Part shown: one piece after another, positions 40,856 to 60,695 of the stretch
Layout of the letters: each line of letters opens with the position of its first letter
Numbering within the stretch: position 1 is the stretch's first letter
NCBI GenBank assembly: GCA_016206805.1
Contig: JACQQX010000016.1
Span: 13,256 to 77,255, forward strand
Origin: Candidatus Omnitrophota bacterium
GTDB lineage: Bacteria > Omnitrophota > Gorgyraeia > 2-02-FULL-51-18
Direction: 5' to 3'
DNA: 64,000 nucleotides
Position numbers and translations under genes: made by a program
Notes under the pieces: model-generated
Seen by the model: the letters and a program-made list of their open reading frames with translations, nothing else
What the model was told of the DNA's origin: nothing
The model's database searches: none

Positions 40856-42591
40856 GCGGGATCGAAAGCGTATAGCTCGAGATAGGGGCCGGGACGGTTC
40901 CGGGAAAAAAGCTCTCCGGCATCAAAAGGCAGCGCCACATGGGCCCACCGGTCTTCAGTCATGATCTTGCGGCTGTCCTTGTAGGGCGAAAATACTTTGA
41001 GAAGCCGCATGCTCGGCTTTAACTGGCGGTCAAAAATCTCTGTTTCTCCCGGATAACGGTAACGGACAAAATAAGCCACGTTCTTTTCTCTGAACTCATT
41101 CACGTCCGCGCCAATCAGCGGCGGCCATAATAGAAAGGGGGTTTCCTCCAAACCTTCGGCGTTCAAATAAAAAATACGATGGGTCTTTTTGTCTTTCTGC
41201 GCTTCCAGCATCCATTGGATTTTTTTGGCCTTCAGCTGTCCATGCGGGTCTTCCGCGTTGATTTTTCCTGATTTTTTTAAGATTTCTTCCGGCACTTGAA
41301 CCAGTGGCGGAGAAAAGAAAGGGTGATCCACTACGATGGAGGCGCCCGCCGGCACTTCTTTTTGAATCCATTCATTCACTAAAACCCGTGTATCCGAAAC
41401 CGGCAGAAGACGCGACAACTGCACATCTTTGACCAGCGATGGAAGTGAAATAGCCAATACCACGGCCAGCCAGAATGGGCCGCGGACCCTGGACACCATC
41501 CAAGCCGCGCCCAAACATAGAAATGGAATAATGGGCATCGCGTAACGCTCGTAATGCTGGCTGAATAAAGCGATCATCACGTAATAAACAAAAGGAAAGG
41601 CCGTCAGCCATCGTTTTTCTGGAAATTTAATCCAGAAGGTCACAAGCCCCGCCACACCCACCGCCAAAAGCGGCCAGCCTACTCCCCCACCCAAAGAATA
41701 CCGCAGATGATGGAAAAAGGGCATGGCCGACTCCGACACCGCCTGCTGCCGTATCTCGGAGATGAAAAAAGGAAAGTCCAAAAAGCTGAAAGGGTTGAGT
41801 GTCGCGTAAGTAACCCCCGTCAAAACTGCGGCGCTCAAAAGCCGTTTTCTAAAAAATAAAAAAGGCAGGGCCACGGGAGCGGCGATGTATTTGAGCGCGA
41901 CGGCGATTCCCGCCGCTACGGCCGCCATATTCCAATAAAACACCTTTCCGCTTTTTTGATATTCCGCCAATAAATCAAAAGTCACCAGCATCGCCAGAAT
42001 CATGGGGATGTCCGCATACAGATAATGCGAGTCCCGAACGGGCATATAAGCCAGCGCCATGAAAAAAGCCGCCGCTACTGCCGTTTTTTCATCCCACAGT
42101 TTCCGCGCCAAACGGTAAAGAATGATAACCGAAGCCGCGCCCGCCAAAGCTCCAAAAATCAAGCGGCCAGCCAGATAAAAAACGGTTGGGTCCTTAAAAA
42201 ATAAAATCGCGAAATCCTGGACACTCCAGCGGTAAATCAGCGCCGCGGCCAGATAGAGGATGCCGTAAACGCCGGCCAAAAGATAAGACAAGAGCGGCGG
42301 GATTTTAAAAAAATGGGGATTCAGGTTCCCTGAAGCAAAAGCCAACGCATGATTGACGATGATAGGCTCATCCTGATGGAAAAGATGCGGCAATCCAAAA
42401 TCAATACCGATACAGCGTATCGCCAGCGCCCCCAAAAAAACGAGCCCAATCGCTTTTCCCTTCACCGGGCCACGGCCTTTACGATAAAAAGCAGCGCGAA
42501 ACGGTCCGGCCAAATACGCGCCATGCGATAACGGATGCCAAACGGCAAGAGACTCAACGTCAGGTTGACGCATTGAATGGCTTTGCGCCAA
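40852..42591 (-). CDS. GT-C-fold membrane glycosyltransferase (PMT_2/ArnT-like, polyprenyl-phosphate-sugar dependent)
   Basis: About 11 TM helices with conserved acidic residues in loop 1 (LFHQDEPIIVNHALAF) and a C-terminal soluble domain. A possible GTG start at 42465 would avoid the 130-nt overlap with the methyltransferase gene. Confidence 0.55.
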   Translation of the reverse strand: MAQSHSMRQPDVESLAVWHPLSHGAYLAGPFRAAFYRKGRGPVKGKAIGLVFLGALAIRCIGIDFGLPHLFHQDEPIIVNHALAFASGNLNPHFFKIPPLLSYLLAGVYGILYLAAALIYRWSVQDFAILFFKDPTVFYLAGRLIFGALAGAASVIILYRLARKLWDEKTAVAAAFFMALAYMPVRDSHYLYADIPMILAMLVTFDLLAEYQKSGKVFYWNMAAVAAGIAVALKYIAAPVALPFLFFRKRLLSAAVLTGVTYATLNPFSFLDFPFFISEIRQQAVSESAMPFFHHLRYSLGGGVGWPLLAVGVAGLVTFWIKFPEKRWLTAFPFVYYVMIALFSQHYERYAMPIIPFLCLGAAWMVSRVRGPFWLAVVLAISLPSLVKDVQLSRLLPVSDTRVLVNEWIQKEVPAGASIVVDHPFFSPPLVQVPEEILKKSGKINAEDPHGQLKAKKIQWMLEAQKDKKTHRIFYLNAEGLEETPFLLWPPLIGADVNEFREKNVAYFVRYRYPGETEIFDRQLKPSMRLLKVFSPYKDSRKIMTEDRWAHVALPFDAGELFSRNRPGPYLELYAFDPA

Positions 42592-43217
42592 TAAGAAGGG
42601 TTGCGGCGGATATCACTCACAATCGAGTCCCGCATCGAATAAGCCGGGACATAATCGGTCCATTCAATCGCAAAGCCGGCTTTCTTAAGATCATCAATGA
42701 GTTCATTCAGACGATAACGTCTCACATGATGCACGCCATCGGCGCGCATATTGGGCTGACCCACATATAAAACGCCGCCAGCCTTAAGAACATCATGAAC
42801 TCCACAAAGTGTTTTATTGGGATAATGCAAATGCTCCAGCACTTCAAAACAAAATGCGACGTCATAACTGGCCGCTTCCATCGGAAAACGCTTGCCAATA
42901 TCCCCAAAGATCGCATGAAACCCGGCCTGGCGGGCCGCCTCAAGCCCCGACTGACTGATATCCAGGATGTGCGCGCCTTTAAACCCTAAATACTGCATCA
43001 GTTGGCCATTTCCTCCGGCCACATCTAAAATCTTGTCGCCACTGCGAACCTGGAGGCGCGAACGAACCCGGTCATAAAGCTTTTGATAATAAGCCCGTCG
43101 CGTGCGCTGGAGAGCCTCATCTTTCCAATAATCTTTGTAATACTCCTGGGCATGCACGGAGGGGGATTCCATTAAACGGCCTTCTTTCGCAGCGGCAGCC
43201 ACCGGATATTGTCCCAA
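42462..43217 (-). CDS. Class I SAM-dependent methyltransferase
   Basis: ILDVAGGNGQLMQYL motif I, AHILDIS motif II, and VLYVGQPN post-II. Alternative start MESPS (43172). Confidence 0.7.
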   Translation of the reverse strand: MGQYPVAAAAKEGRLMESPSVHAQEYYKDYWKDEALQRTRRAYYQKLYDRVRSRLQVRSGDKILDVAGGNGQLMQYLGFKGAHILDISQSGLEAARQAGFHAIFGDIGKRFPMEAASYDVAFCFEVLEHLHYPNKTLCGVHDVLKAGGVLYVGQPNMRADGVHHVRRYRLNELIDDLKKAGFAIEWTDYVPAYSMRDSIVSDIRRNPSYWRKAIQCVNLTLSLLPFGIRYRMARIWPDRFALLFIVKAVAR

Positions 43218-44632
43218 CGGAAATCAAAAAGAACGTGTTTCAAGAAAAAAGCGGCAATCATCGCCATCAATATTTCCACTGGAAATCGGTATTTCCGGTC
43301 CGGGAAAATAATCATATGCTCAGCCATCCAGAAAAAAATGCAGCTGGCTACGACAAGCAGTCCGCGCCTGGAGGGCTCAGAAAATACTTTCCATCGCCGC
43401 CCGATCAAAATCATGGAAAAAATAAAACAAAAAAGAAGGCTGTAATAAAACGAAAATGCCGTCTCTTCCAGAAGATCCTTGGTGTGTTGCGCGATAGGCC
43501 GCGCCGGATCATAAGAACCCTCGTAATACTGGTACCATATCGGCCAAATCCCTCCGCTGCGGTCCCAGCCCATAAACACCAAAAGCCGCTTGCTTCCAAA
43601 ATTTAAAAACTCCAGCGGGTGACTGGCGATCCACCGGGTCATTAAACGGCTGCCCAGCACATGGCGCACGCCAATATTGTCGGTTTTCTGGGCCGCCTCC
43701 AGCTCTTCTGAAAAACCCGGCTCTCCCCGCTCAGGAAAACGGCCGGACCCCTCCGGAGTCGCGTATGAATTGACGACCTTGTAGAGACCGTCCCCGGTAT
43801 AGGTGTAAGTGATCACCTGCCCCCAGATTTTGTAATTGCGGATCACCCAAGGAAGATTGACCAGCTGCATCACCAGAAAAACCGATACGACCCCCAACAG
43901 AACCGAGCGCCAGGATTTCCGCATCAGAAAATAAGCCCAACCCACAACCAGCGGCATAAACACCGCATTCGTCCGGGTCATCGTGGCGTACCCGAAAATC
44001 AGGCCGTACCATAGACAGGCGAAGGGAATTTTTTTACCGGCAACCTCCGCCAGAAGCAGCAGCAAACCGCCGTACCAAAGCGGTAAAAATAGATGCTCGT
44101 CCGTAGCCATGTTGACACTGTAAACAGCGATGGGGTGAATCGCGTATAACAGTCCGGCGATTAGGGCCGCTTTCTGATCAAACACCCTTTTGGTGATGCC
44201 ATACACGAGAAAAAATGTCACCGCAAAAAGAAAAAGACTGGAAAGAACGATCACTTCAAAATGAACTCCAAAAATCTTATACAAAAGCCCTAAAAACATC
44301 GGGTAACCGATGGGCCGGCGCGCAACCGCTTCGCCCATGCCATCATGAAACCAGATGCCCTTGGTCAGTTCGATCGCATGCATGTTGGTATTGTCGCTCT
44401 CAATCATGTGGAACTGATTCCATTCCGTGCGAGGGGCATAGCTAGAAAAAGCGGCCCACCCCAGCCGAAGACCCAATCCCAGCAAGAGGAATAAAATCAA
44501 AAGGACGCGCGGAGAAATACGCAAAGACAGGCGGAGATATTTCCATAGCGATAAACCCGTCAGCAGAATGACCAGATGCAGCGTGAAGTGATTGGTCTCG
44601 AAATATTCGCCGAGATAAGACAGCAGGCTCAT
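43172..44632 (-). CDS. GT-C-fold membrane glycosyltransferase (ArnT/PMT_2-like)
   Basis: RPIGYPMFLGLLYKIFG and multiple TM helices, similar to 4-amino-4-deoxy-L-arabinose transferase-like proteins. Confidence 0.55.
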   Translation of the reverse strand: MSLLSYLGEYFETNHFTLHLVILLTGLSLWKYLRLSLRISPRVLLILFLLLGLGLRLGWAAFSSYAPRTEWNQFHMIESDNTNMHAIELTKGIWFHDGMGEAVARRPIGYPMFLGLLYKIFGVHFEVIVLSSLFLFAVTFFLVYGITKRVFDQKAALIAGLLYAIHPIAVYSVNMATDEHLFLPLWYGGLLLLLAEVAGKKIPFACLWYGLIFGYATMTRTNAVFMPLVVGWAYFLMRKSWRSVLLGVVSVFLVMQLVNLPWVIRNYKIWGQVITYTYTGDGLYKVVNSYATPEGSGRFPERGEPGFSEELEAAQKTDNIGVRHVLGSRLMTRWIASHPLEFLNFGSKRLLVFMGWDRSGGIWPIWYQYYEGSYDPARPIAQHTKDLLEETAFSFYYSLLFCFIFSMILIGRRWKVFSEPSRRGLLVVASCIFFWMAEHMIIFPDRKYRFPVEILMAMIAAFFLKHVLFDFRWDNIRWLPLRKKAV

Positions 44633-45615
44633 CGGGGCTGAATATCGATATTGACCGCCTCATGGACGATAAAAAGCGGCCGGCGTTTTACTTCCGAATA
44701 AGTCCGGCCGACATATTCACCGAGTATTCCAATGCCCAGACTGTTCAAACCGATGGCCGCCAGGATCAAAAGAATCACTGTCGGAATACCGGGAGGCGGC
44801 GTGCCTTGAATGGTCAACCAAAGATAAAAGATGAACGCCAGCGACGTTACACCCAGAAGAATAAACCCCATCATGGTAAAAATCCTCAGAGGTTTGAGTG
44901 AGAAACTCGTCACCGCGTTAAAAACAAAAACCAAAAGATACCAGAACGGCGCTTTGCTTTTACCGGCCTTACGGGGCTTGCGCTCATAAGGAACACCGGC
45001 CTGCTTGAAACCCAGCCAGGAAATCAGCCCTCTCAGATAACGGTTCACTTCCCCACATTCTAAAAACGCGTCGCGAACCTGCCGAGTGATCAACCGAAAA
45101 TCACCGGCATTAACGGGAATGGAAACATCTGAAGCCCATTGAATAAGGCGGTAAGCGATCTTCACGGCAAAATTCCGCCACGCCGGTTCGCCGGGCCTTG
45201 TAGTGCGAACCCCATAAACAACATCATACCCTTCACGCCATTTCTCAAGCAGCAGCGGAATGGCTGACGGCGGATCCTGCAAATCCGAATACAGCACAAT
45301 GATGGCGTCCCCAGAAGCGTAGCGGTAACCGGCCGTCATCGACATTTCAGCGGTAAAGTTACGACTCAGACGCAGGTATTTCCAGCGATTATCACGACCG
45401 CATATTTCTTTGACCAATTGGCCGGTGCGATCGGTGCTGCAATTATCGATGATAAGGAATTCAAAACGATACGGCAGGCCGTTCAGGGCCTCGTTGATTT
45501 CTTTTTCCAGAAAAGGAATATTTTCTTCTTCGTTGTAGGCCGGTATCACCACTGAAACCAGATTCATCGCTTGGATTCCCCCGCTTTCGTGAGTTTTTGC
45601 TGGGCCTGATTCCAC
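44629..45615 (-). CDS. GT2 polyprenyl-phosphate sugar synthase (GtrB/ArnC/DPM1-like, with two C-terminal TM helices)
   Basis: LVSVVIPAYNEEENIP...LIIDNCSTDRTGQL...DLQDPP plus C-terminal membrane helices (FTMMGFILLGVTSLAFIFYLW). Confidence 0.75.
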   Translation of the reverse strand: MESGPAKTHESGGIQAMNLVSVVIPAYNEEENIPFLEKEINEALNGLPYRFEFLIIDNCSTDRTGQLVKEICGRDNRWKYLRLSRNFTAEMSMTAGYRYASGDAIIVLYSDLQDPPSAIPLLLEKWREGYDVVYGVRTTRPGEPAWRNFAVKIAYRLIQWASDVSIPVNAGDFRLITRQVRDAFLECGEVNRYLRGLISWLGFKQAGVPYERKPRKAGKSKAPFWYLLVFVFNAVTSFSLKPLRIFTMMGFILLGVTSLAFIFYLWLTIQGTPPPGIPTVILLILAAIGLNSLGIGILGEYVGRTYSEVKRRPLFIVHEAVNIDIQPR

Positions 45616-46649
45616 AGAATCGTCCTTTTGATCGCCGTATCCAGGTCTACTGTGATTTCCAAACCCAAAGAATTTTGCGCCAGTGAAATATCCGGCACTA
45701 AACGCGAGCGCTGGGCCTTGCCGGGCGGCAAAAGGTGGGAGGCGATGCGCGGCTTATCGGGAAAAAGATCCGCGATTTTTTCAGCCAGCGCCAAAAGCGT
45801 CACCCCTTCCGGGCTGCCCACATTGTAATTTTGCCCAGGAACGCCATCAGTGAGAATGCGCAACAGCCAGAACGCCATGTCGCTGGGATACATATAACTC
45901 CGCACTGTTTGTCCGTCGCCGAGAATCCTGATGGCTCCCCCTAAAAGCGCGTCGCGCATGAAGTTATTGACCGCCCATGGCCTGTCCAGCATCTGATAGG
46001 GTCCGATAAAAGCAAAAGGCCGTGCGCACACCAGCGGCAAACGGTGCTGGCTACGGTAAACCGTGCAAAGGGTCTCCGCAAAACGCTTGGCTTCGGCGTA
46101 AGAGGACATCACAGAAGCGCAGTCAAGATTTCCAAAAAATCCTTCAGAAATTTTTTCAAGGTTATCCGGTTGATTCCCATAGATACTGGCAGAGCTGACA
46201 TTCAGCATCTTTTTGAGATTGGGCAAGCGTGTGGCGCAATCCAAAACAGCGGCAGTGCCGCGAGTGATCACTTCTATTCCCCTCAAAGGCTCAGAAGCAT
46301 AAACACGATTATCCGGATTACCGGCGGCATGGATAATCCAGGAAACTTCCTGCGGGATTTCCATCAAACCCCGGATATCACGCTCGATCAGCGTCACATC
46401 AGGCCGGACAGCGATATGCGGCGCGCGGGCGCTGAGATTATTGGCCCGACCAGACAAAAGAAAAAGTTTCGTGCCGAAACCGAAGTGGTCATTGAGAGTC
46501 GCGATCATTTCCGCCAGCCATGTCCCCATAAATCCGGTGCCGCCGGTGATGAGAACGGTTTCACCTTTCAGGGCGCCTAGCACCTCCGGGCGCTTTAACG
46601 CGTTCCGGCAATCTTCCTGCACAATATCCATCACGTAAGATGATTTCAT
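45564..46649 (-). CDS. NAD-dependent epimerase/dehydratase (extended SDR) acting on a nucleotide sugar
   Basis: VLITGGTGFMGTWLAEM Rossmann motif and an SxnYxxxK-type catalytic region (SSASIYG). Paralogous to 50335..51306. Confidence 0.65.
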   Translation of the reverse strand: MKSSYVMDIVQEDCRNALKRPEVLGALKGETVLITGGTGFMGTWLAEMIATLNDHFGFGTKLFLLSGRANNLSARAPHIAVRPDVTLIERDIRGLMEIPQEVSWIIHAAGNPDNRVYASEPLRGIEVITRGTAAVLDCATRLPNLKKMLNVSSASIYGNQPDNLEKISEGFFGNLDCASVMSSYAEAKRFAETLCTVYRSQHRLPLVCARPFAFIGPYQMLDRPWAVNNFMRDALLGGAIRILGDGQTVRSYMYPSDMAFWLLRILTDGVPGQNYNVGSPEGVTLLALAEKIADLFPDKPRIASHLLPPGKAQRSRLVPDISLAQNSLGLEITVDLDTAIKRTILWNQAQQKLTKAGESKR

Positions 46650-47662
46650 CGGCTAACCTTTTTACCGGCAAGGTCCATCGCCACTTCAATAATCAAGTCT
46701 TCTTGCCCAGCCACAACCTTACGACGGCCCAATTCAAAAAAAAGATCCCGGGGATCCACGCCATACTCCTTGGACGCGCGCTCAACATGTTTGGAAAACC
46801 CGGAAAATACTCCGGCCAGGCCGCTGACGATGCTAATGGATTGAATAGCGGGAATAACTTTCATGATCTCCCGCTCAGCGATCTCGGCGGCATCCAAAAG
46901 TTTATAAAAATCAATCCCTGTCGAGTAGCCCATTTTATCCAGAACCGCGATGAGCACTTCCAGCTGCGTATTTCCGGCGCCCGCCCCGAAACCGCGCACC
47001 GTGCCGTCCAGTATCGTCGCGCCCGCTTCAGCGGCCGCCACGGAATTAGCCACAGCCATACCCAGGTTATTATGCCCATGAAAACCCACCGGAATATTGA
47101 GTGCTTTGACGAGCTCCGCGATCCGTTCCGTCACATCCGACGGGAGATAAGCGCCGGCCGAGTCCATGATAATAATGCCTTCGGCGCCATAGGACTCCAT
47201 CTTGAGCGACTCTTCAGCCAAAGTTTCCTTGGAAACCATATGCGACATCATCAAAACGCCATATACTTCTTTTCCACGTTCGCGCACGTAACCAATGTGA
47301 CGGCGCGTGACGTCCGCTTCGGTGCAATGCGCGCCGACTCGAAACACATCCACGCCCACTTCGACCGCTTTTTCAATATCTTTGCGTATCGTCGCGAAAC
47401 CCGGCATCACATGGACACCCAATTTCGAACGCACCAGCTTCCTTCGCGCGGCCTTGAGCATTTCCATGTCACCGACGGCGCTCTCGCCCACCTGAAGAGA
47501 AGACGCGCCCAGCCCATTCCCATGCCCCACCTCGACAATGGGGATTTGAGCGGCTTCCGCGGCTTCGGCGTACCGCGCGATTTGTTCGGCGGTCAGCTGA
47601 TGCTTGACGGCGTGGTTACCGTCGCGGAGCGTGGGATCGCTGATCAGTATCTTTTTTTTCAT
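46646..47662 (-). CDS. 4-hydroxy-2-oxovalerate aldolase-like (DmpG/MhpE/BphI family, HMGL-like class II pyruvate aldolase)
   Basis: MKKKILISDPTLRDGNHAVKH, VEVGHGNGLGASS and GFHGHNNLGMAVANSVAA match DmpG. The start was verified as the ATG at 47660..47662. Confidence 0.8.
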   Translation of the reverse strand: MKKKILISDPTLRDGNHAVKHQLTAEQIARYAEAAEAAQIPIVEVGHGNGLGASSLQVGESAVGDMEMLKAARRKLVRSKLGVHVMPGFATIRKDIEKAVEVGVDVFRVGAHCTEADVTRRHIGYVRERGKEVYGVLMMSHMVSKETLAEESLKMESYGAEGIIIMDSAGAYLPSDVTERIAELVKALNIPVGFHGHNNLGMAVANSVAAAEAGATILDGTVRGFGAGAGNTQLEVLIAVLDKMGYSTGIDFYKLLDAAEIAEREIMKVIPAIQSISIVSGLAGVFSGFSKHVERASKEYGVDPRDLFFELGRRKVVAGQEDLIIEVAMDLAGKKVSR

Positions 47663-48521
47663 TTTTATTCGCGAAAGCTTCGGCGGTCGCGATGGCCGCG
47701 CAGTTGATGATATCCAGATTTCCCGCGTAACGCGGCAAATAATCGCCAAGCCCCTGAACTTTGACCATGATGACAATGCGGTTATTTTCATAAACAGGGC
47801 CGGCGAGAAGCCGGTAGCCCGGAACATAGGCTTGGATCTTGGCGACTATCGCTTTGACTTCGCGGTCAAGCGCCTCAAGATTCGGCTGTTTTACTTTTGC
47901 GAAAAGCGTGGTTTGCATGTCAATGCAAGGCACGGCGGGATTTTGAATCAGAATGGTTTTAGTTTTCGCGCAGCCTGAAAAAAATGCCAACGCGTCTTCG
48001 GTAGTTTCAACATATTCATCGATATTCAACCGTGTGGCGGGACCGGAGCTGCGAGAAGCGATGCTCGAAACCACTTCCACATAATCCACCTCATGCGTTC
48101 TACCCAAAGCGTGCGCCAGCGGGATCGAAGCCTGGCCGCCACAAGTGACCATGTTGACATTGCGCTGGTCCAAACATGGGTCAAGATTGATCGCCGGGAT
48201 GCACATGGTGCCGATTTTGGACGGCGTCATATCGATCACGATTTTTCCAAGGCTTTGTAGAACAGACCAATGATGGCGATGATCGATGGCGGATGTAGCG
48301 TCGAAGACCAGATCACAAGAGTCTGGCTCGCTGCGAATGGCTTCTATGCCCCGGTCCGAGATTTTTACCCCTAAGCTATTGGCTCGAGTCATGCCGGGCG
48401 AGGAAAGATTGCGGCCGATGAAAGCAGCGCATTCCAAGACCGGGGAACGCAGGGTCTTGATTAAAAGATCAGTGCCGATATTGCCGCTACCCAGAATCGC
48501 AACTTTGAGCTTTTTCATCAT
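47616..48521 (-). CDS. Acetaldehyde dehydrogenase (acetylating) (DmpF/MhpF/BphJ family)
   Basis: MKKLKVAILGSGNIGTDLLIK N-terminus and MVTCGGQASIP with the catalytic Cys are typical of DmpF. Confidence 0.8.
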   Translation of the reverse strand: MMKKLKVAILGSGNIGTDLLIKTLRSPVLECAAFIGRNLSSPGMTRANSLGVKISDRGIEAIRSEPDSCDLVFDATSAIDHRHHWSVLQSLGKIVIDMTPSKIGTMCIPAINLDPCLDQRNVNMVTCGGQASIPLAHALGRTHEVDYVEVVSSIASRSSGPATRLNIDEYVETTEDALAFFSGCAKTKTILIQNPAVPCIDMQTTLFAKVKQPNLEALDREVKAIVAKIQAYVPGYRLLAGPVYENNRIVIMVKVQGLGDYLPRYAGNLDIINCAAIATAEAFANKNEKKDTDQRSHAPRR

Positions 48522-50338
48522 TCCACCTTGATTTGCGCTGATTTTGGATGAAGGCCAATCAACATATTATCTTTAAGCTCTTGTCTGGGCAATAGCGGCG
48601 ACAGATCTTCCAGCGGAGGCGAAACAAGCGTCCCATCCGCCTGGGGAGCCAGCGAGAGCTTGGGCACAAAAGGCTGCTCCGGATGCATGAACACTTCGCA
48701 AATCAGAGGTCCTTTTTCTTTTTGAATTCCCGGAATCACACGCTCAAAATCCGGCCACGTGCGGATTTGAAAAGCCGTCATGTCGAATGCCTTGGCTAAT
48801 TTAGTAAAGTCGGGACATGAAATGCCGGATTTTTGGTCCGTCCCGGCATAATGACCTTTAAAAAGGGCTTTCTGCGTGTGCTTGATCATCAAATAACCAT
48901 CATTATTGAAAATAATGATTTTGATAGGAAGCTTATGATGAGCGATGGTTTGCAGCTCCTGCAAATTCATCATCATCCCGCCGTCGCAGTTCAGACAAAG
49001 CACTTCGCTTTTATTTTTGGCAAAGGACGCTCCGATAGCGCCGGGCAGACCAAAACCCATTTCCCCCAGCCCTGTCGAAGTAATGAGGCGCTGCCCCTCT
49101 TTTATCTTGAGCGCCTGATGCCCGGACAAAAGCGCGGTCCCCATATCCGTGACGACGATTTGATCCGGTTTCAAATGATTCGACAGCTTGTCCATGAAGG
49201 GGTAGGAATTTAAAAACCCGTTCTCATCGCGATGTTCCGACCCGACCCAGGGATATTTTGTTCGATAGCGGTTGCACGTTTTGATCCATTCATCAAAAAC
49301 TGGCGGCGAACGCTTACTCGCCTGATCCAGCAGCGAATCCAGAAATACATCCGCGGAAGCGCAAATCGGCAGATCCACCCGATTGCCCAGTTTCCGGGTT
49401 TCGGACTCCTCCACATCCACCATCACTATTTTGGCGGCGCGGGCAAACTCACTTAAGTCATAGCCTACTTGAGGAATGGCCAGGCGCGTGCCGATAGTCA
49501 AAAGAAAATCGCAATTCTGCAAAATAAAATTGGCCGATCGCTGCCCATAAACACCGGCACGCCCAAACACCAACGGATGGCCTGAGTCCACGATATCGAT
49601 ACCCGCCCAAGACACCAGCGTCGGCACACGCAAATTTTCTAAAAGCGTTTTAACTCGCGAAACAGCGTTGGCATGGCGGATACCAATCCCGAGCCAAAGC
49701 AACGGGCGTTTGGCTTGAGATAAAAGATCCAGCGTCTGACGGACCTGCTCCTCCAAATCGGTATTTTGGGAAGGCGAGGACGAGACTTTCCACTGTTCAT
49801 AATCTTTTTCTTCGACGGCCATAGACTGGATATTCATGGGAATATCAATCCAACAAGGACCGGGGCGGCCGGAACGCGCGATCGCATAAGCTTTTTCCAG
49901 CTCCGCGTCCACCTGCCGAGGATCCATAACACGATGGGCGTATTTGGTGACCTTGCGCACCATTTCCACGCTGTCATAGCCCTGGACGCCCCAAACGCGC
50001 AACGGATTTTCCGGTGTCGTGTATTTGGAGTTTTCATTTCCTGAAATGATAAGGCCCGGCATCGAATCCATCCAGGCGCCGACGACGCCCGTGACTCCGT
50101 TGGAGGAACCGCCGCCCGTGGTCAGAATAGCGGCCGTGACTTTGCCTGAAATACGGTAATAAGACTGCATCGCCATCGTCGCGGCCTGTTCATGATGGAC
50201 GCAAATGATTTCTGTGAAACCCAACCGCGCGATCGAATCAAAAATATGGGCATTGCCCGCGCCCACGATGCCGAATACGTGGCGGATGCCATGTCTTTTT
50301 AAAAACTTAGCGATGCGGTCGCTTGCCTTAACACTCAT
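48518..50338 (-). CDS. Thiamine-diphosphate-dependent enzyme, acetolactate-synthase-large-subunit-like (YerE-like candidate)
   Basis: Three-domain ThDP enzyme: N-terminal Pyr domain (HVFGIVGAGNAHIFDSI...VHHEQAATMAMQSY...GVVGAWMDSMPGLIISG), a middle domain, and a C-terminal PP domain with a GDG-x24-NN-type ThDP motif (NCDGGMMMNLQELQT...IIIFNNDGY). Confidence 0.8.
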   Translation of the reverse strand: MSVKASDRIAKFLKRHGIRHVFGIVGAGNAHIFDSIARLGFTEIICVHHEQAATMAMQSYYRISGKVTAAILTTGGGSSNGVTGVVGAWMDSMPGLIISGNENSKYTTPENPLRVWGVQGYDSVEMVRKVTKYAHRVMDPRQVDAELEKAYAIARSGRPGPCWIDIPMNIQSMAVEEKDYEQWKVSSSPSQNTDLEEQVRQTLDLLSQAKRPLLWLGIGIRHANAVSRVKTLLENLRVPTLVSWAGIDIVDSGHPLVFGRAGVYGQRSANFILQNCDFLLTIGTRLAIPQVGYDLSEFARAAKIVMVDVEESETRKLGNRVDLPICASADVFLDSLLDQASKRSPPVFDEWIKTCNRYRTKYPWVGSEHRDENGFLNSYPFMDKLSNHLKPDQIVVTDMGTALLSGHQALKIKEGQRLITSTGLGEMGFGLPGAIGASFAKNKSEVLCLNCDGGMMMNLQELQTIAHHKLPIKIIIFNNDGYLMIKHTQKALFKGHYAGTDQKSGISCPDFTKLAKAFDMTAFQIRTWPDFERVIPGIQKEKGPLICEVFMHPEQPFVPKLSLAPQADGTLVSPPLEDLSPLLPRQELKDNMLIGLHPKSAQIKVE

Positions 50339-51306
50339 GGTCTATGCCAATCCACTGTTTTTCGCACAGCCTCTTCCAAATTAACCGTTTGTTTAAGATT
50401 GAATTGATTTTGCGCGACCCCGATATCCGGCAAATAACGCTTCCCGCCCATGCCCGTCATATTTTGATTTTCCATTTCAATCTTGGGCCGCGGATTGAAT
50501 GCGCCAGCCACCGCCCGCGCGGCCTCAAAAATCGTAGTTGGCTGAGCGGAGCCCACATCCACCGCCTGCCCCGTCTTCGCTTTCAAAAGCACCGTCCAAA
50601 GCCATGCCGCCATATCGGAAGCATACAAATAAGAACGCACCGGCGTTCCATCCCCCTTCACTCGGATCGGACCGCCACTCAACGCGTCGGCGATAAAATT
50701 GCCTATCGCGTAATGCGCATCCAGCGGCAATCGCGGTCCGACAAAGGAAAAGCACCGCGCGATTTTCGCTTGAACGCCTTTGGCGGACGCGTCCTGACAC
50801 ATCCACTCGGCTTCTTTTTTGGCTTCAGCGTAAAGCGAGAGCGGCCCATACACAGCGCCCGAACTCAAAAAAAGAAATCGGACGTTCTCCTGCAGGGCCG
50901 CAAACTCCAAAACCTGGCGGGTTCCCTCAACCATCGTATCCGCCTGATCCGGTTGAGCGGCCGCGTGAATCACATGCGAAAAGCGGCCCTGGGGAAATTT
51001 AAAATCACGCACATCGCCCACAATCCACTCAACAACACTGGAAGAAACTTTCCCGGGGCCTCGTGTCAAACAAACCGCGTGAGCGCCCAAATGCATCGCA
51101 TGGTTGGCATGCAAAAAACTTTCCAGAAGCCATGAGCCGATAAAACCGCCGGCGCCCGTAAAAAAAACTGTTTTACCGCGAAGCTCATCCCACAAATCCT
51201 TCGTCGAATCTAAAACCGCGTCCAGGTCTTTAACGGGCAGAGACAAACTCATGGAAAGAACCGATAATAAAATCCAGCATGGGCCGGGTGAGTCCCGGAT
51301 AAACAC
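50335..51306 (-). CDS. NAD(P)-dependent epimerase/dehydratase-family reductase (candidate 4-keto/branch reductase of the dideoxyhexose pathway)
   Basis: [20 protein letters not shown] Rossmann motif, with SSGAVYGP and a YAEAK catalytic Y-x3-K. Alternative start M19 (51252). Confidence 0.65.
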
Positions 51307-52546
51307 CTATCCAGAACGACCGGTTCATCACAAAGTCGGACCGGTTCAAATCACTGGCTTGACGGTAACGGACATCCGCGTACGCGGGCTGTTTGGTGAG
51401 GTTTCCCCCAAAAACAAGACGGGCGTGAATGGCGTTTTTTTCCAAATGGGCGATGATTTCATTGCGTGAAAAAGGAGCTTTTTCTCGGACAGAAATAGGA
51501 AAACCAAACCAACTGGGCTCACTGCCGGCAGTGGCTTCCGGCAAAATAAAAAAATCTTCCAGGTCCTTCAGGCCCTGGTAAAGGATTTTGAAATTCTCTT
51601 TCCTTTTTTCGACAAAAGACGGAAGTTTTTTGAGTTGGGAAACGCCCACCGCGGCCTGCATGTCGGTGGCTTTCAAGTTATAGCCCACATGGGAATACGT
51701 GTACTTATGATCGAAACCCTTCGGAAGCTGCCCCAACTGCCAGTTAAAACGCCTGCCGCAGGTATTGTCCTTGCCCGGATCGCACCAACAGTCCCTGCCC
51801 CAATCCCGGAAAGACTCGACGATCACTTTAAGTTTCCCGTCCGATGTGAGCACAGCGCCCCCCTCTCCCATCGTGATGTGATGCGCCGGATAAAAACTCG
51901 TTGTCGCCAGATCCCCAAAAGACCCGACTTTTTTTCCTTTATAAAGCGACCCTACCGCGTCACAACAGTCTTCAATCAGCCAAAAGCCGTAACGCTTGGC
52001 AAAATCCGTCACCGCGTCCAAATCAAACGGATTGCCCAGCGTATGCGAAACGATAATGGCCCGCGTGCGCGGCGAAAGCGCGGCGTCTAACCACGAAGGA
52101 TCCAGGTTATAAGTCGGCAAGGAAATATCGATAAAAACCGGCACAAGATTATTTTGGATGATGGGATTGACTGTCGTTGGAAAGCCGGCGGCGACGGTGA
52201 TCACTTCGTCACCCGGCTTAACCTGCCGGGCGCCAAGCTTGGGCGAAGTGATCGCGGAAACAGCCAAAAGATTGGCCGAAGAACCGGAATTGGTCAAAAG
52301 CGCATGACGCACCCCGATAAAATCCGCAAATTCTTTTTCGAATTGTTTGGCAAACCGGCCCGTCGTCAGCCAAAAATCCAGTGACGCGTCGACCAATGAA
52401 TTTAAATCTTCGGAATCAAATACCTTCCCGGAAGCGGGAATCGGGGTTTTGCCGGGAACAAAAGACGGCGGGGAAAAAGAAAGCGCGTGATACTTTTCCA
52501 CCAGCCCAAAAATTTCCTTACGCAGCTGAGCGCCGGGCAAGGTCAT
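51230..52546 (-). CDS. ddhC: CDP-4-keto-6-deoxy-D-glucose-3-dehydrase (E1; DdhC/RfbH/AscC)
   Basis: A near full-length match to the RfbH pattern ([20 protein letters not shown]...[34 protein letters not shown]...[27 protein letters not shown]...HTLGNPFD); the [2Fe-2S]-ligating Cys residues [15 protein letters not shown] are present. Confidence 0.85.
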
Positions 52547-53559
52547 GAATTAAAAAAATCGCGGTACCAGCCGATGGTGCGCTCAAGACCCGCGTCCAAC
52601 GTGAAAAGCGGCGCCCACCCGAGGATTTTCCTGGCTTTGGCCGCGCTCAAATACTGGTGACGGATTTCATGTTTGGCCTCATTGCGGATATCCGGCTTGA
52701 GCTTCGAATCCATCAGCTTCAAGATACGCTCGACAATTTCCCGGACGGTGGTCTGCTCTTCATTGGAAAAATTAAACGCATGCCCCCTAAGGTCGGGATT
52801 TTTGGCCAGGCGCTCGGCCAACAGCATGTAAGCCGCCGCGCCGTCTTCAATATAAAAATAATCACGGATGAACTTTCCATCAGAACGGATCACAGGCCTT
52901 TCTCCGCGCAACACCGAGCGAACGGACCCTGGCACGATCCGATTCCAGTTCAAGTCCCCGCCGCCATAAAAATTCCCGCAGCGCGTAATCACAACGGGCA
53001 AATCAAAAGTTTCCGCGTAGGACTGCGCGAGAATATCCGTGCAAGCTTTGCTGGCATCGTACGGATGGCGGCCGCCAAGCGGCGTTTCCTCACTGTAGGG
53101 CAATTTTTTCTGCTCGCCATAAGCTTTGTCGGAGGAAGCCACGATCACCTGTTTCACGCGTGGGCTGCGACGGCAGGCTTCAAAGAGGCTCCAGGTGCCG
53201 CCGATATTGGTTTCAAAGGTGGAAACAGGGTTGGCGCTGGCAATACCCACGATGGTCTGAGCGGCCAGATGAAAAACCGTTTCGATTTCATATTCTCCGA
53301 GCACGCGCTCCAAAACCGCCTGATCTCTCACGTCTCCGCGCACAATGGTTGTTTTGTCATTCAGCTTGTCGCGGACAAAAAGACTTTGAGGAACCCAATC
53401 CCTGACCAGAGACACCACATCAGCGCCTTCTTCCACTAAACGCTTGGTCAGCCATCCGCCCGCAAGTCCGGTAGCGCCAGTGATCAAAGTCCGCCGGTCA
53501 CGCCAAAATCCGCTCGGTTTCAATTCCATATCCTCCAAGGCGCTTTTCCGCCCGTCCAA
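52543..53559 (-). CDS. ddhB: CDP-glucose 4,6-dehydratase (DdhB/RfbG)
   Basis: [31 protein letters not shown] and [15 protein letters not shown] (Y-x3-K) match RfbG. Alternative start M11 (53529). Confidence 0.85.
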
Positions 53560-54320
53560 AGCTCATTCAGATAATTGTATTCGCGGTAAGTGTCCATCGC
53601 GTAAAAGAACCCTTCATGCCGATAGGCCATCAACTCCCCCTCACGCGCCAGACGCTCCAGTGGGTCGCGCTCCAAAACACAATCGTCCCCGCCCAGATAT
53701 TTGAAAAAATTCTTATTGAACACCATAAAACCGGCGCTGGCCCAGCCATCCAGCTGCGGCTTTTCGGCAAAGTGTTTAATCCGGCCCTTGCTATCCAGAT
53801 CAACTACTCCAAAACGGGAGACAGGCTTCACGATAGTCACCGTCGCCATTTTTCCATGCGAACGGTGAAACCGAACCAGGTCCTGCACATCCACATCCGA
53901 TACCCCATCCCCATAAGTCACGATAAAAAGATCCGTATCGATATAAGGCTCGCTGCGCTTCACTCTCCCACCCGTCATGGTTTCAAGCCCCGTCTCCACC
54001 AACGTTACCCGGAAATCCTGCTCGGGATGGGCATCGTGATAGGTCACGCGGCTTTGGCGGCCCAGAGAAATTGTAAAATTATTGTTCATGGCCTCGTAAT
54101 TTAAGAAATATTCTTTAATCATATTGCCGCGATAACCCAGGCAAAGCACAAAATCATCTAACCCAAAGTGGGCAAAAGACTTCATGATATGCCACAAAAT
54201 AGGTTTTCCGCCTATTTCAACCAGCGGTTTGGGGCGATATTCGGTTTCTTCCCGCATGCGGGTTCCCTGTCCCCCGCAGAGGATCAGAACCTTGGAGCGA
54301 TTTTTAACTTTTTTAGGCAT
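53520..54320 (-). CDS. ddhA: Glucose-1-phosphate cytidylyltransferase (DdhA/RfbF)
   Basis: [38 protein letters not shown] matches the RfbF signature G-G-x-G-T-R...KP. Confidence 0.85.
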
Positions 54321-54335: not shown

Positions 54336-55949
54336 TCATAGTTTTTCCCTTAAATCATAGACAAAAACCGAGTGCCCAAGGACATGCGTGGGCCTAGCCC
54401 CGCGAGTCCATTCGAACCCCTCTAGGAAATGGGCGCCAAGCGCGTAAACTGTCTTTTTGGGATTATTAAACTCATCGGGTGTGGCGGAACGGCTAGGAAT
54501 GCCATAATAGGCCGGATCGGCAGATTGATGAAAAGCCAGGACCACTTCCGGGTATTTTTCTTTCTGAACCAGTTCACCCAATAGCTTCATGTCCTGCCCC
54601 CAATCCAGATTAGAGTCCCGAAGCACTTTATAACCATTTTGCGGACCGCCGGCCAGCTGATTGAAATAAGCCAGATGATGAGGAAAGATCCGCAAAGCCT
54701 CAGCCGCATGCCAAACCATGAAAACCACAACCACCGCCTTAAAAAACGCTTTCTTTTTCCATAAATAAGCGCTCACCCCTCCGCCCAAAATAAAAATCAG
54801 CGGGTAAATCGGCAGAAAATAACGAATACCGGCCTGAGCCTTATCCCGGAAAGTGACTAAAAAGAAAAATAGGATGGGGAGAATAAGAATAACTTTGCCA
54901 AGCTTGTCCAAGCCCAACCGCGAAAGAAAAGCCAGGGAAAGAATAAACAGCAAAAGAAGCGGAATGGTATTTTTCACCGCGAAAGCGACTGGATAATAAT
55001 ACCACCATCCCTGCCTTGACCATTCTCCCATCAAAAAAGCACGGGTTCCTTCACCGCGCGTATGCGTCATACCCGCCACCGCCGAAAAAAAGGTCGCCAG
55101 CGGAACGGGCGTCTTCCGCGCAAACTCTACCATGGACTCGCCACCCAACTCCCTGACAAATTCTGTTTTGGCTTCCACGTGGGTGACATGCGACAAAACC
55201 GGCTTCATTTCAAAAAAATAACCGGCCCAAACGGTGAACAAACACACCGATGAAAAAATAATGATGTTTCGGATGGAAAAAAACCGGCCGCGTCCCGTGA
55301 TAATCCCGGCAACCAAAAAAATCGGGAAAAGCAGGATCGCGCTAAATTTGGACAGAAGCGCCAAGCCCGTCAAAACTCCCGTTCGGTAAACCCCCGGAAG
55401 GCCAGGCGTTCGCAGCCACGACGCAAAACTCATCAAAGCCAGAAAAAAGAAAAACGCCACGGCCAGGTCCGCGGTCGCCAGTCCCGAATGGGCCACGATA
55501 TCCGGACAAAAAACATATAACGCTAGGCTCGCCACAGCCGCCCATTCCCCGAAAAATATTTTCGCGAAATAAAAAACAGCCCAGGCGAAAAAAAGCGACA
55601 GGAGGACTATCGGCATACGGGACCAAAAAAGAAAATGCTCCATCCCTTGATTGGAGCGGTAAAAAAGATCCTGCGCGAAAGCGGGACTATCGGCCGCCTC
55701 CCAAGCGGGGCCGGTCGGGAAATTTAATTTCATTATCACCAGCGGCAACGACGATAAAAGCCGCGGGAGAGGTGGCGAAGCCGGGTTCATCCGGAAATCC
55801 CGCCTCATCCAATACGAGTAACCGCTGGAAACGTGATGCGTCAGCTCATCCGCGGTCGGAGACTTGAATCGCATGGCAAAAACCGTTTGCAGAAAAAGAA
55901 CCGTCAGGAGCCCAATGACGGTGAGTCGAATAGACCATTTCGCTTTCAT
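54336..55949 (-). CDS. GT-C-fold membrane glycosyltransferase (ArnT/PMT-like)
   Basis: The first extracytoplasmic loop carries a DE motif (PTADELTHHVSSGYSYW). About 12 hydrophobic helices and a C-terminal soluble domain. Confidence 0.55.
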   Translation of the reverse strand: MKAKWSIRLTVIGLLTVLFLQTVFAMRFKSPTADELTHHVSSGYSYWMRRDFRMNPASPPLPRLLSSLPLVIMKLNFPTGPAWEAADSPAFAQDLFYRSNQGMEHFLFWSRMPIVLLSLFFAWAVFYFAKIFFGEWAAVASLALYVFCPDIVAHSGLATADLAVAFFFFLALMSFASWLRTPGLPGVYRTGVLTGLALLSKFSAILLFPIFLVAGIITGRGRFFSIRNIIIFSSVCLFTVWAGYFFEMKPVLSHVTHVEAKTEFVRELGGESMVEFARKTPVPLATFFSAVAGMTHTRGEGTRAFLMGEWSRQGWWYYYPVAFAVKNTIPLLLLFILSLAFLSRLGLDKLGKVILILPILFFFLVTFRDKAQAGIRYFLPIYPLIFILGGGVSAYLWKKKAFFKAVVVVFMVWHAAEALRIFPHHLAYFNQLAGGPQNGYKVLRDSNLDWGQDMKLLGELVQKEKYPEVVLAFHQSADPAYYGIPSRSATPDEFNNPKKTVYALGAHFLEGFEWTRGARPTHVLGHSVFVYDLREKL

Positions 55950-57469
55950 GGATTCCCCGCCTCATTCAGCCGGAATATCAGATACCGCTCCGCTTCCCGA
56001 TGTACCGAAAAATGCGTCCGCAGATAATCCTCAAAACCTTTTTCCGCTACGGCCAGGTTTTGCCGCGTCGTGACAAAATAATCCGCTCCTTTTTTCCTCA
56101 TTTCCTCCAACTGCGGGATGGATTTTTCGAGCGGGTGCGAAATCGTAATGCTCCATCCTTTCCGGTGGCAATAATAAAGAAGCGAGTGAGTGGACCCATA
56201 GGAGCTGACGATCAGCGAATCAGGCGCCGTCGTTTTCCGGACTTCCTCTCCCGCCTCAATCACATGAAGATGTTCCTTCGGAATAAAATAAAGCCCCCGA
56301 TAATAATAATAAAGTGTGGCAACCGTCATCAGCGTCATAATCCCCAGAACTATCGGCTTAAGCGCCCATTGACGTGTTTTCGGATCATCCAAAACCCGCT
56401 TGGTTCCCACACCCACAAAAACAGCGCACACCGGAAGCATGGCCAACAGATAATAATGATTCATGATGAAAATCGGCCATACCGCGGCCAAGAAAAGAAC
56501 GATGCCAAAAAACCAGACATAAAAAATCAGGCTTTCCTTTTCCGGTTTCCGGTTTAAAAAACCCAGCAGAAAAAGAATTGAGGCAACGGGTGTGAGCACG
56601 TGAATGAAAAATATTTTGAAAATCGTCACAAAGTGTCCGAGGGACAAAAGATATCCCCAGCTCAAAGGTACGACTCCCCGGTCATAGGCCAGTGTCCGGT
56701 AATTCTGGTTCATGGTAAGGGACAGCTCGTACATATTCCAGTACCAAAAAAGCGATAGGGCCGCCACCGCCAGATAAAAATAATATTTTGGGTCACGAAA
56801 AATACTCTTCCCTTGGGCGTTCCAAGCCATCACAAAAATAACCGGAAGCAAATAAAGCGTGTAAGGTTTGGTCCACAGCGCCAGCATCAAAAAAATGAGC
56901 GAGATGAAAAAATGCTTCAGGCCTCGCGTCCGACAGTACTCATAAAAAAAATAAAGGCAGGAAGCGCTGGCCAGCAACATAAACATGTCCGGCTGCACCG
57001 AACGGCTGAAGGCCACGCTAATGGGAGAAAACGCCAGAAAACATAAAGCCGCATTGGCCGCGACAATACCGTAGATCCGCTTCACGAACAAAAACATCAC
57101 CAGCATGAAAAGAAGGGAAAATAGAACCGAAACCATGCGACCGGCCCATTCCCGCACTCCGCCTGCCGCCTTGTAACTCAAAGCGATCAGATACGGCACT
57201 ACCGGCACTTCGGCGGTTTCATAATAAGGGCCTGGACCGTTCAGATCGATCTCGGGATAAAAAAAGTTGAAACCATGTTCGTAAAAATTCCGCGCGATCG
57301 TAGCGGTAGTCATCTGACGGCTGACGCTATTGTAAGGTTCCATGTAAGGCAGATCCAGATGATAGAAACGCACGGCCACCGCGGCAAAAATAATCAGCCA
57401 GAACGCGGCCTTTGCCTTACCCTTCACTTGACACCTCCCCGGCTCACTTGTAAAATCCTCGAATGCCAT
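55946..57469 (-). CDS. GT-C-fold membrane glycosyltransferase (ArnT/PMT_2-like)
   Basis: An ArnT-like N-terminal region (LDLPYMEPYNSVSRQMTTATIARNFYEHGFNFFYP) and about 12 TM helices. Confidence 0.55.
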   Translation of the reverse strand: MAFEDFTSEPGRCQVKGKAKAAFWLIIFAAVAVRFYHLDLPYMEPYNSVSRQMTTATIARNFYEHGFNFFYPEIDLNGPGPYYETAEVPVVPYLIALSYKAAGGVREWAGRMVSVLFSLLFMLVMFLFVKRIYGIVAANAALCFLAFSPISVAFSRSVQPDMFMLLASASCLYFFYEYCRTRGLKHFFISLIFLMLALWTKPYTLYLLPVIFVMAWNAQGKSIFRDPKYYFYLAVAALSLFWYWNMYELSLTMNQNYRTLAYDRGVVPLSWGYLLSLGHFVTIFKIFFIHVLTPVASILFLLGFLNRKPEKESLIFYVWFFGIVLFLAAVWPIFIMNHYYLLAMLPVCAVFVGVGTKRVLDDPKTRQWALKPIVLGIMTLMTVATLYYYYRGLYFIPKEHLHVIEAGEEVRKTTAPDSLIVSSYGSTHSLLYYCHRKGWSITISHPLEKSIPQLEEMRKKGADYFVTTRQNLAVAEKGFEDYLRTHFSVHREAERYLIFRLNEAGNP

Positions 57470-58766: not shown

Positions 58767-58769
58767 CGT

Positions 58770-60594: not shown

Positions 60595-60660
60595 CTGACT
60601 CCCCTAAAAAGACTTAGGATAACGGATGAGATTATCGAATGCAATCGTTTTATGTCCGTC

Positions 60661-60690
60661 TTGGAAAAAGAGCCCTCTTTGTGCTAGAAT
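60661..60690 (+). promoter_or_regulatory. Candidate sigma70-like promoter for the plus-strand membrane-protein gene (TTGGAA -35, 18-bp spacer, TGnTAGAAT extended -10)
   Basis: Read from the sequence: ttggaa(60661..60666)-18 nt-TGcTAGAAT(60682..60690), only 5 nt before the ATG at 60696. This implies a leaderless or near-leaderless transcript. Sequence match only. Confidence 0.2.
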
Positions 60691-60695
60691 CCGGC

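Follow-up and report, generated by a model that had tools for sequence, protein, structure and literature searches.

The erwiniose gene cluster of Pectobacterium atrosepticum SCRI1043 carries the genes of ErwE and ErwF beside those of the BphI-like ErwI and the BphJ-like ErwJ (Steitz et al. 2022, PMC9306805). ErwJ converts acetyl-CoA to acetaldehyde, ErwI condenses acetaldehyde with pyruvate to (R)-4-hydroxy-2-oxopentanoate, and ErwE joins this 2-oxo acid, with a preference for the R donor, to cytidine diphosphate (CDP)-4-keto-3,6-dideoxyglucose; in vitro, ErwE accepts 4-hydroxy-2-oxopentanoate and rejects pyruvate (PMC9306805). A 64-kb stretch of DNA (hereafter the window) from an uncultured Omnitrophota bacterium (contig JACQQX010000016.1) holds a locus in which, as in the erwiniose cluster, the genes of a thiamine diphosphate (ThDP)-dependent carboligase, a short-chain dehydrogenase/reductase (SDR), a BphJ-like dehydrogenase, a BphI-like aldolase and CDP-dideoxyhexose enzymes lie together. 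Very probably, the product of this locus is a 3,6-dideoxyhexose with an acyl branch, most likely of four carbons and destined for the cell surface, made by a pathway of the erwiniose type, if the donor chemistry follows that of the published homologues. It differs from the erwiniose cluster in the CDG motif of its ThDP enzyme, in a further SDR gene (SDRb) fixed 3' of the aldolase gene, in a GtrB/ArnC-like family 2 glycosyltransferase (GT2) accompanied by a GT-C type glycosyltransferase, and in its host. The scheme having been published for erwiniose in 2022, the locus is a new example in a new host and not a new mechanism.

In the yersiniose A pathway of Yersinia pseudotuberculosis, YerE and YerF likewise carry out a ThDP-dependent acyl-anion addition to C4 of CDP-4-keto-3,6-dideoxyglucose and a subsequent SDR reduction; YerE uses pyruvate directly, generating a two-carbon branch, in a pathway without an aldolase or dehydrogenase step (PMC9306805). 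JanthE, a "YerE-like" lyase of Janthinobacterium sp. HH01 (PDB codes: 8rph, 8rpi and 8rpj), has a CDG instead of a GDG motif, joins 2-oxo acids to ketones to form tertiary alcohols, and can use 4-hydroxy-2-oxovalerate (PMC12188165). The CDG motif has been called unique to JanthE among the YerE-like enzymes in the literature, therefore ErwE is presumably of the GDG type. While JanthE was studied as a biocatalyst, the window enzyme stands in the context of sugar-pathway genes.

The mechanism being published, the main value of the present analysis lies in correct annotation. Pipelines would label the genes in question "acetolactate synthase", "4-hydroxy-2-oxovalerate aldolase" and "acetaldehyde dehydrogenase", labels that imply amino-acid synthesis and aromatic catabolism within a surface-glycan operon. 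A cassette made up of the genes of a ThDP enzyme, a dehydrogenase, an aldolase and an SDR occurs widely. A 2024 in-silico survey, as cited in a 2025 review, counted more than 200 YerE-like clusters; the branched sugar's structure is not known for the vast majority of the predicted clusters (PMC12247030).

Locus organization and proposed pathway

Nearly all genes over positions 1282-57469 of the window are on the minus strand. The run devoted to the glycan sugar reads, 5' to 3' on this strand, ddhA, a ddhB-like gene, ddhC, a first SDR gene (SDRa), the ThDP enzyme gene, the acylating acetaldehyde dehydrogenase gene, the aldolase gene, SDRb, the GT2 gene and the GT-C gene (Table 1). From 57469 to about 36609 the gene junctions are mostly overlaps of 1-4 nucleotides (nt), the exceptions being a 15-nt gap 5' of ddhA and a 47-nt overlap between the aldolase and dehydrogenase genes, and longer overlaps are possible at the starts of the ddhB-like and SDRa genes. 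This whole stretch therefore looks like a single translationally coupled operon. A scan for promoters and terminators placed every site within coding sequence, and the excess of terminator-like sites over shuffled sequences marks no intergenic site.

Seven of these genes, from ddhA to the aldolase gene, had been named in an earlier reading of the same DNA (the sequence-only reading), and we find all seven, on the minus strand, with the coordinates given there apart from the start of the aldolase gene, which we moved from 47827 to the ATG at 47662, the conserved N-terminus being MKKKILISDPTLRDG. The unit drawn there, 46646-54320, holds as to its genes; it is larger, since SDRb and the GT2 and GT-C genes continue it with 4-nt overlaps.

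We propose that DdhA, the DdhB-like enzyme and DdhC (the E1 component) would convert glucose-1-phosphate to CDP-4-keto-3,6-dideoxy-D-glucose, with the reductase of E1 (E3, DdhD) encoded elsewhere in the genome. In parallel, the acylating dehydrogenase, working in the reductive direction, would generate acetaldehyde from acetyl-CoA, and the aldolase would condense acetaldehyde with pyruvate to 4-hydroxy-2-oxopentanoate, probably the 4R enantiomer. The CDG-type ThDP enzyme would decarboxylate this acid and place a 3-hydroxybutanoyl unit on C4 of the keto sugar, resulting in a tertiary alcohol. The ketone of the branch would then be reduced by SDRa, while the second SDR and a methyltransferase would tailor the product. 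The GT2 enzyme would probably move the CDP-sugar to polyprenyl phosphate and, after flipping, the GT-C protein would attach the sugar to a surface glycan. That the pair runs biosynthetically and feeds a longer donor to the ThDP enzyme was one possibility raised in the sequence-only reading, and the operon fusion, the conserved synteny, the non-catabolic active site and the published erwiniose pathway all support it.

The ThDP-dependent carboligase and its association with the aldolase-dehydrogenase pair

JanthE (PDB code: 8rph) is the best solved relative of the ThDP enzyme (phmmer, 824.7 bits). The two share 59% identity over 602 aa, as opposed to 31% with PpYerE (PDB code: 5ahk; blastp), whose 265 bits are barely above the 242 bits of an acetohydroxyacid synthase (AHAS). 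The motif LNCDGGMMMN has a Cys where the GDG(X)24-27N motif starts with Gly, and C451, M399, Y293 and K560, equivalent to C458, M406, Y297 and K567 of JanthE, are invariant in 22 homologues. The enzyme thus belongs to the YerE-like group, as first described, but it is not a close homologue of YerE itself. AHAS is its best NCBIfam match, however at 360.8 bits with TIGR00118 it stays below the cut-off of 538.35, and none of the remaining AHAS models comes near its own threshold. No small-subunit gene (ilvN/ilvH) is adjacent to the ThDP gene; both of its neighbours, the SDR and the aldehyde dehydrogenase genes, overlap it by 4 nt and leave no room for ilvN. The score, the missing ilvN and the identity with JanthE rule out an acetolactate synthase, in agreement with the earlier assignment. 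By analogy with the characterized enzymes, we propose that the window enzyme adds a decarboxylated 2-oxo acid to C4 of a CDP-4-keto sugar. A family of open reading frames (f21) was discarded, as it represents an antisense reading frame within the ThDP gene.

The distribution of the pair was surveyed in one genome per species, anchored on relatives of the ThDP enzyme, and 80 loci were kept (L001-L080). The pair was counted by tblastn, since clustering of open reading frames missed the aldolase or the dehydrogenase in L021, L024 and L068. Both genes adjoin the ThDP gene in 74 of the 80 loci, with 56-81% identity. Three of the six loci without the pair are on contigs of 2.8-4.3 kb, and three (L015, L025 and L062) genuinely lack it, so that the linkage amounts to 96% (74 of 77 loci of adequate size). 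L070, one of those without the pair, has a JanthE-type CDG enzyme, ddh genes and one SDR; it is on a 4.3-kb contig, and the pair may sit beyond its end. The order dehydrogenase-aldolase-SDRb is nearly fixed. The hosts of the cassette represent more than a dozen major lineages, including Omnitrophota, Chloroflexota, Armatimonadota, Bacteroidota, Spirochaetota (Leptospira), Verrucomicrobiota, Acidobacteriota, Gemmatimonadota, Bdellovibrionota, Elusimicrobiota, Hydrogenedentota and several proteobacterial classes. Among the cultured carriers are species of Flavobacterium (F. aquidurense DSM 18293 and F. hercynium DSM 18292), Mucilaginibacter (M. pedocola TBZ30), Leptospira (L. ilyithenensis), Sphingomonas (Sphingomonas sp. 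OK281) and Terriglobus, as well as Aquirufa rosea.

The association was also tested in reverse, on metagenome contigs anchored on the aldolase (80 loci, L081-L160), 38 of which have enough flanking DNA. A ThDP gene is present in 37 of these 38, and it encodes a CDG-type enzyme in 21 and a member of a GDG-type clade in 16, hence the aldolase module serves two ThDP clades. The GDG clade is about 35% identical to the window enzyme, JanthE and PpYerE alike, and may be the ErwE-like one. The gene arrangement is far beyond chance. The occurrence of the pair in a glycan locus, which had been thought unusual, is the rule for this ThDP family; a published description dates from 2022. Within L081-L160, the module of aldolase, dehydrogenase and SDRb, its aldolase carrying the His/Phe signature described below, is paired with a GDG-motif ThDP enzyme in 24 loci. 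In one of the metagenome loci, L082 (GDG-type ThDP gene at 5283-7073), ddhA, the variant form of ddhB and ddhC are 62-70% identical to their window counterparts; one ThDP clade seems to have taken the place of the other while the architecture of the cluster stayed the same.

This genomic context points to 4-hydroxy-2-oxopentanoate as the donor and a CDP-4-keto-3,6-dideoxyhexose as the acceptor for most members of the CDG family, and it thereby proposes physiological substrates for CDG-motif enzymes, a question that the JanthE papers leave unanswered. In a different scheme, the ThDP enzyme would use pyruvate to build a yersiniose-type two-carbon branch, and the pair would be accessory, removing for instance the acetaldehyde released from hydroxyethyl-ThDP. 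JanthE does accept pyruvate (PMC12188165), and three JanthE-type loci are without the pair. Nevertheless, neither the 96% linkage with its reciprocal (37 of 38), nor the translational coupling, nor the conserved communication domain, nor a family-wide change at exactly the two aldolase residues that determine stereochemistry would be expected of a detoxifying accessory, and ErwE, the one tested system with the pair, rejects pyruvate (PMC9306805). We consider a pyruvate-derived branch in this locus quite unlikely; the scavenging of acetaldehyde, the other role suggested for the pair in the sequence-only reading, found no support.

Several observations weigh against the erwiniose-type pathway as proposed here. 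For this locus the pathway is predicted from the genes, and the likeness to ErwE, ErwF, ErwI and ErwJ (WP_011093010-013) is drawn from their published descriptions; searches toward the Erw, YpYerE and YerF sequences found nothing in Escherichia coli genomes (distant blastn) or in plasmids (tblastn). According to PMC12188165, JanthE takes pyruvate as well as further 2-oxo acids, and the substrates that it uses physiologically have yet to be identified. L015, L025 and L062 combine a JanthE-type CDG enzyme with ddh genes and one SDR without the pair, and L062 is among the loci closest to JanthE (75% identity); the family is therefore not strictly tied to the 4-hydroxy-2-oxopentanoate donor, and part of it may use another one, such as pyruvate. 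The formation of the acceptor would depend on an E3 that is absent from the window and on a DdhB-like enzyme that scores below its cut-off. Finally, SDRb has no assigned step, and on this account the end product may be a sugar other than erwiniose.

Active sites of the aldolase and the dehydrogenase

With the catabolic complexes DmpFG, BphIJ and HsaFG (PDB codes: 1nvm, 4jn6, 8ih7 and 4lrs), the window pair shares the folds, the communication domain, the Arg and His residues, the metal ligands and the Cys, at about 265-275 bits for the aldolase and 229-241 bits for the dehydrogenase. The catalytic Cys of the dehydrogenase, aligned to DmpF, is kept in NMVTCGGQA, and the gene overlaps the ThDP gene by 4 nt. 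The aldolase, aligned to 1nvm, keeps Arg17, Asp18, His21, His200 and His202 of DmpG. It has His at DmpG Leu88 (BphI Leu87), Met at Leu90 (BphI Leu89) and Phe at Tyr291 (BphI Tyr290), the His and the Phe being residues 85 and 287 in a 339-residue numbering (one less from the ATG at 47662), hence the comparison with DmpG and BphI proposed at the outset gave a divided answer: the catalytic and metal-binding residues are the same, while the positions governing stereochemistry differ (His/Phe versus Leu/Tyr). Leu and Tyr occupy BphI positions 87 and 290 in all four solved catabolic aldolases.

The His/Phe combination and the catalytic residues are invariant in 73 of 73 aldolases of the genome loci, in which the BphI Leu89 position is always bulky (Ile in 63, Met in 10). 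In the 80 metagenome loci the aldolases carry His/Phe in 69 cases and Phe/Phe in 9, one locus each has Leu/Phe and Phe/Val, and Tyr occurs in none. Among representatives of clusters at 50% identity, His/Phe is found in 14 full-length proteins, mostly among those closest to the window aldolase, and 16 Leu/Tyr types have 34-46% identity to it. The His/Phe signature offers a simple sequence rule telling biosynthetic from catabolic aldolases. Many of the aldolase-related representatives (within P0157-P0270) are 606-842 aa long (mostly 656-708) and have a Tyr at the catalytic His21 (RDYFIHHH); these long relatives look like a large distinct clade, apparently of fused proteins.

A further alternative takes the two genes for an ordinary catabolic DmpFG/MhpEF pair placed by chance among glycan genes, or the ThDP enzyme for a housekeeping acetolactate synthase. 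Both the dehydrogenase and the aldolase pass the NCBIfam equivalog cut-offs for catabolic enzymes, and AHAS is the best NCBIfam match of the ThDP enzyme. On the other hand, the genes overlap glycan genes by 4 nt on either side, no hydratase, hydrolase or dioxygenase gene is nearby (the sole FAA_hydrolase gene, at 17205-17843, is 29 kb away), the Leu87/Tyr290 signature is missing, and the AHAS score, the lack of room for ilvN and the identity with JanthE speak against the synthase. We regard either version as extremely improbable. No separate catabolic operon, which the sequence-only reading would have taken as a refutation, exists around the pair, which overlaps glycan genes and has no catabolic neighbours, and the absence of catabolic context, together with the His/Phe residues, is what sets it apart from DmpFG, BphIJ and HsaFG; we propose that it works in the synthetic direction.

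Wild-type BphI is strictly 4S-specific, with the chiral C4 of the substrate placed between Leu87 and Tyr290; the Y290F variant has lost stereocontrol, and the L87N/Y290F and L87W/Y290F variants use the 4R enantiomer only (PMC3962088). Because His/Phe resembles these 4R variants of BphI and because ErwE prefers an R donor, we infer that the His/Phe lineage is naturally 4R-selective. If this is true, the lineage would supply ready-made 4R-selective pyruvate aldolases for biocatalysis.

A variant of the erwiniose-type pathway concerns the aldehyde. The dehydrogenase might reduce another acyl-CoA, such as propionyl-CoA, and the aldolase might make, for example, 4-hydroxy-2-oxohexanoate, leading to a five-carbon or otherwise different branch. 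ErwE converts 4-hydroxy-2-oxohexanoate in vitro (76%, versus 49% for the pentanoate; PMC9306805), BphI treats acetaldehyde and propionaldehyde similarly (PMC3962088), and the second SDR and the methyltransferase imply that the product is not simply erwiniose. However, the position corresponding to BphI Leu89, which controls the access of longer aldehydes, is bulky in all genome-locus aldolases, as said above, and the dehydrogenase and the aldolase both pass acetaldehyde-specific equivalog models. Another aldehyde is accordingly an improbable choice, although the least improbable of the alternatives considered, and we retain acetaldehyde and 4-hydroxy-2-oxopentanoate as the intermediates of the proposed pathway.

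Dideoxyhexose genes, tailoring, transfer and neighbouring genes

The sequence-only reading had regarded ddhA, ddhB and ddhC as clearly recognizable, which is true for ddhA and ddhC, both above their cut-offs; the ddhB-like protein is below the cut-off of TIGR02622, which is nevertheless its best NCBIfam match, and belongs to a variant group. Its gene, with a likely start at ATG 53529, overlaps ddhA by 4 or 10 nt and ddhC by 4 nt, and its translation has the motifs SDKAYG and YDASK. The variant dehydratase was found in 8 sources only, the window and 7 of the 80 genome loci (66-71% identity), whereas canonical RfbG is present instead in 49 of the 80. The hosts of the variant among the 80 loci are Omnitrophota, Anaerolineaceae, Capsulimonadaceae/Armatimonadales and Bryobacteraceae. 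DdhC has the iron-sulfur motif of E1 (C195-X57-C253-X-C255-X7-C263), and SFYPAH puts a His at the Lys position of the aminotransferases. Homologues of ddhA, ddhB and ddhC are found by tblastn in 56-68 of the 80 genome loci, and a ddhA homologue in 59 of 80.

A domain search of the 64-kb window for ddhD/E3 (ferredoxin-NADP reductase and ferredoxin domains) found no gene, which bears out the absence reported earlier. An E3-like gene lies beside ddhA in 13 of the 80 related loci, exclusively in Bacteroidota. The lack of E3 is therefore normal for the cassette and does not count against the proposed pathway. SpnQ, an E1 homologue, runs with generic ferredoxin or flavodoxin reductase pairs (PMC8987622), which makes it plausible, by analogy, that the reductant of E1 is supplied from elsewhere in the genome. 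The E3-like gene of the Bacteroidota (L012, L026, L028, L035, L037, L041, L046, L050, L054, L061, L065, L066 and L069, mostly at about 6000-7090) is directly upstream of ddhA and encodes a PaaE-like reductase of 346 aa, in which an FNR-type domain is combined with a ferredoxin domain at the C-terminus, likely an E3 substitute in these loci. Its domain order differs from that of AscD.

The cassette has an extended SDR on either side, SDRa and SDRb, and in both the GxxGxxG and YxxxK motifs are intact. SDRa, with a likely start at ATG 51252, would be, judged by synteny, the YerF/ErwF-like ketoreductase of the branch. Two SDRs are the case in most loci; the one beside the ThDP gene (type SDRa, SDR7 or f18) occurs in at least 60 loci and is the sole SDR kept where the aldolase is missing. 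SDRb, whose gene overlaps the aldolase gene by 4 nt, has UDP-glucuronate decarboxylases as its closest solved relatives (about 100 bits). An SDRb-like gene was detected in 76 of the 80 genome loci by tblastn; it lies directly downstream of the aldolase gene in 65 of 71 loci, and no locus that lacks the aldolase has it. An FkbM-type methyltransferase gene is inside the cassette in 18 related loci. In view of SDRb and the FkbM methyltransferases, the final sugar may be a derivative of erwiniose, not erwiniose itself. The class I methyltransferase of the window, whose start at ATG 43172 overlaps the GT-C stop codon by 1 nt, is co-transcribed with the run and is a possible tailoring enzyme.

The GT2 gene, with a likely start at ATG 45567, has 4-nt overlaps on both sides, and its product matches PgfS (241.7 bits) and ArnC (160.2 bits) in NCBIfam, both below cut-off; among the 80 genome loci, 27 have a homologue. 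The GT-C protein has about 8 hydrophobic segments and a syntenic homologue with 52% identity in another Omnitrophota locus (L001). From these two genes, a lipid-carrier route with periplasmic attachment of the sugar can reasonably be suggested. To our knowledge, the use of CDP-sugar donors has not been established for the GtrB/ArnC-type class of GT2 enzymes.

Four points may be new with respect to the published scheme: the His/Phe signature of the aldolases, the use of one aldolase module by two ThDP clades, SDRb, and the coupling with GT2 and GT-C. The His/Phe aldolases, found in more than a dozen lineages and with two ThDP clades, may represent a natural 4R biosynthetic lineage of the DmpG/BphI family, the counterpart of the engineered BphI L87N/Y290F. 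Here and in about one third of the related loci, the branched sugar may be used via polyprenyl phosphate and a GT-C protein, with no cytoplasmic Leloir transferase for the branched CDP-sugar. Taken jointly, that is, a natural 4R lineage, use of the sugar via polyprenyl phosphate and GT-C, and a product other than erwiniose due to SDRb, these suggestions are tentative, and we think it somewhat less probable that all three are right than that at least one is wrong.

Table 1 Features of the glycan-sugar run (positions in the window)
Feature	Position	Strand	Evidence
ddhA, glucose-1-phosphate cytidylyltransferase (CDP-glucose)	53520-54320	-	TIGR02623 equivalog 321.6 bits, cut-off 300.25
ddhB-like NDP-hexose 4,6-dehydratase, variant subfamily	52543-53559	-	TIGR02622 230 bits, cut-off 278
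ddhC/RfbH (E1), pyridoxamine phosphate (PMP)/[2Fe-2S] CDP-6-deoxy-4-keto-glucose 3-dehydrase	51230-52546	-	NF011936 729.8 bits, cut-off 423
SDRa, extended SDR	50335-51306	-	Pfam Epimerase 96.6 bits; GxxGxxG and YAEAK motifs
ThDP-dependent carboligase, 606 aa, CDG-motif JanthE family	48518-50338	-	all three TPP domains
Acylating acetaldehyde dehydrogenase (DmpF/BphJ/ErwJ-like)	47616-48521	-	TIGR03215 383.9 bits, cut-off 282
Class II pyruvate aldolase (DmpG/BphI/ErwI-like)	46646-47662	-	TIGR03217 397.4 bits, cut-off 286; DmpG_comm 99 bits
SDRb, extended SDR	45564-46649	-	Pfam Epimerase 114 bits
GT2, polyprenyl-phosphate glycosyltransferase-like (GtrB/ArnC/PgfS type)	44629-45615	-	Glycos_transf_2 98 bits
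GT-C polytopic glycosyltransferase (PMT_2/ArnT-like)	43172-44632	-	PMT_2 55.7 bits
Class I S-adenosylmethionine (SAM) methyltransferase	42462-43217	-	Methyltransf_11 49 bits

Around this run, polytopic GT-C/PMT-like proteins are unusually concentrated at 36609-44632 and 54336-62378, five of them with Pfam matches; the large proteins encoded at 38396-40855 (apparently a membrane protein) and 60639-62378 have no Pfam match. Besides the GT2 gene of the run, there is a second GtrB/ArnC-like one at 58770-59711 and another GT2 gene at 57463-58203 on the plus strand. An MBOAT (AlgI-like) protein and an AlgX/SGNH-like protein, a pair suggesting O-acetylation of a glycan, are encoded within 29567-36174; after them come the genes of a protein with an FkbH_N domain and of a classical SDR. 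The genes at 24348-29223 form a nonulosonic-acid module with a NeuB synthase, a PglD-like acetyltransferase, a DegT aminotransferase carrying a CBS domain at its N-terminus, a TIM-barrel protein (AP_endonuc_2) resembling sugar-phosphate isomerases/epimerases, and a GFO/IDH oxidoreductase. An odd sub-cluster at 9931-18898 comprises a pyruvate-kinase barrel fused to an APS-kinase domain (9931-11580), a Wzx-like flippase, a HAD phosphatase, a D-2-hydroxyacid dehydrogenase, a CMP-sugar-synthetase-like cytidylyltransferase, a 212-aa protein of the FAA_hydrolase fold and a GAPDH-like protein. A B12-binding radical SAM enzyme (3160-4668) is encoded among glycosyltransferases, its gene adjoining those of a methyltransferase (2425-3156) and a heptosyltransferase-like GT9 protein (1282-2421).

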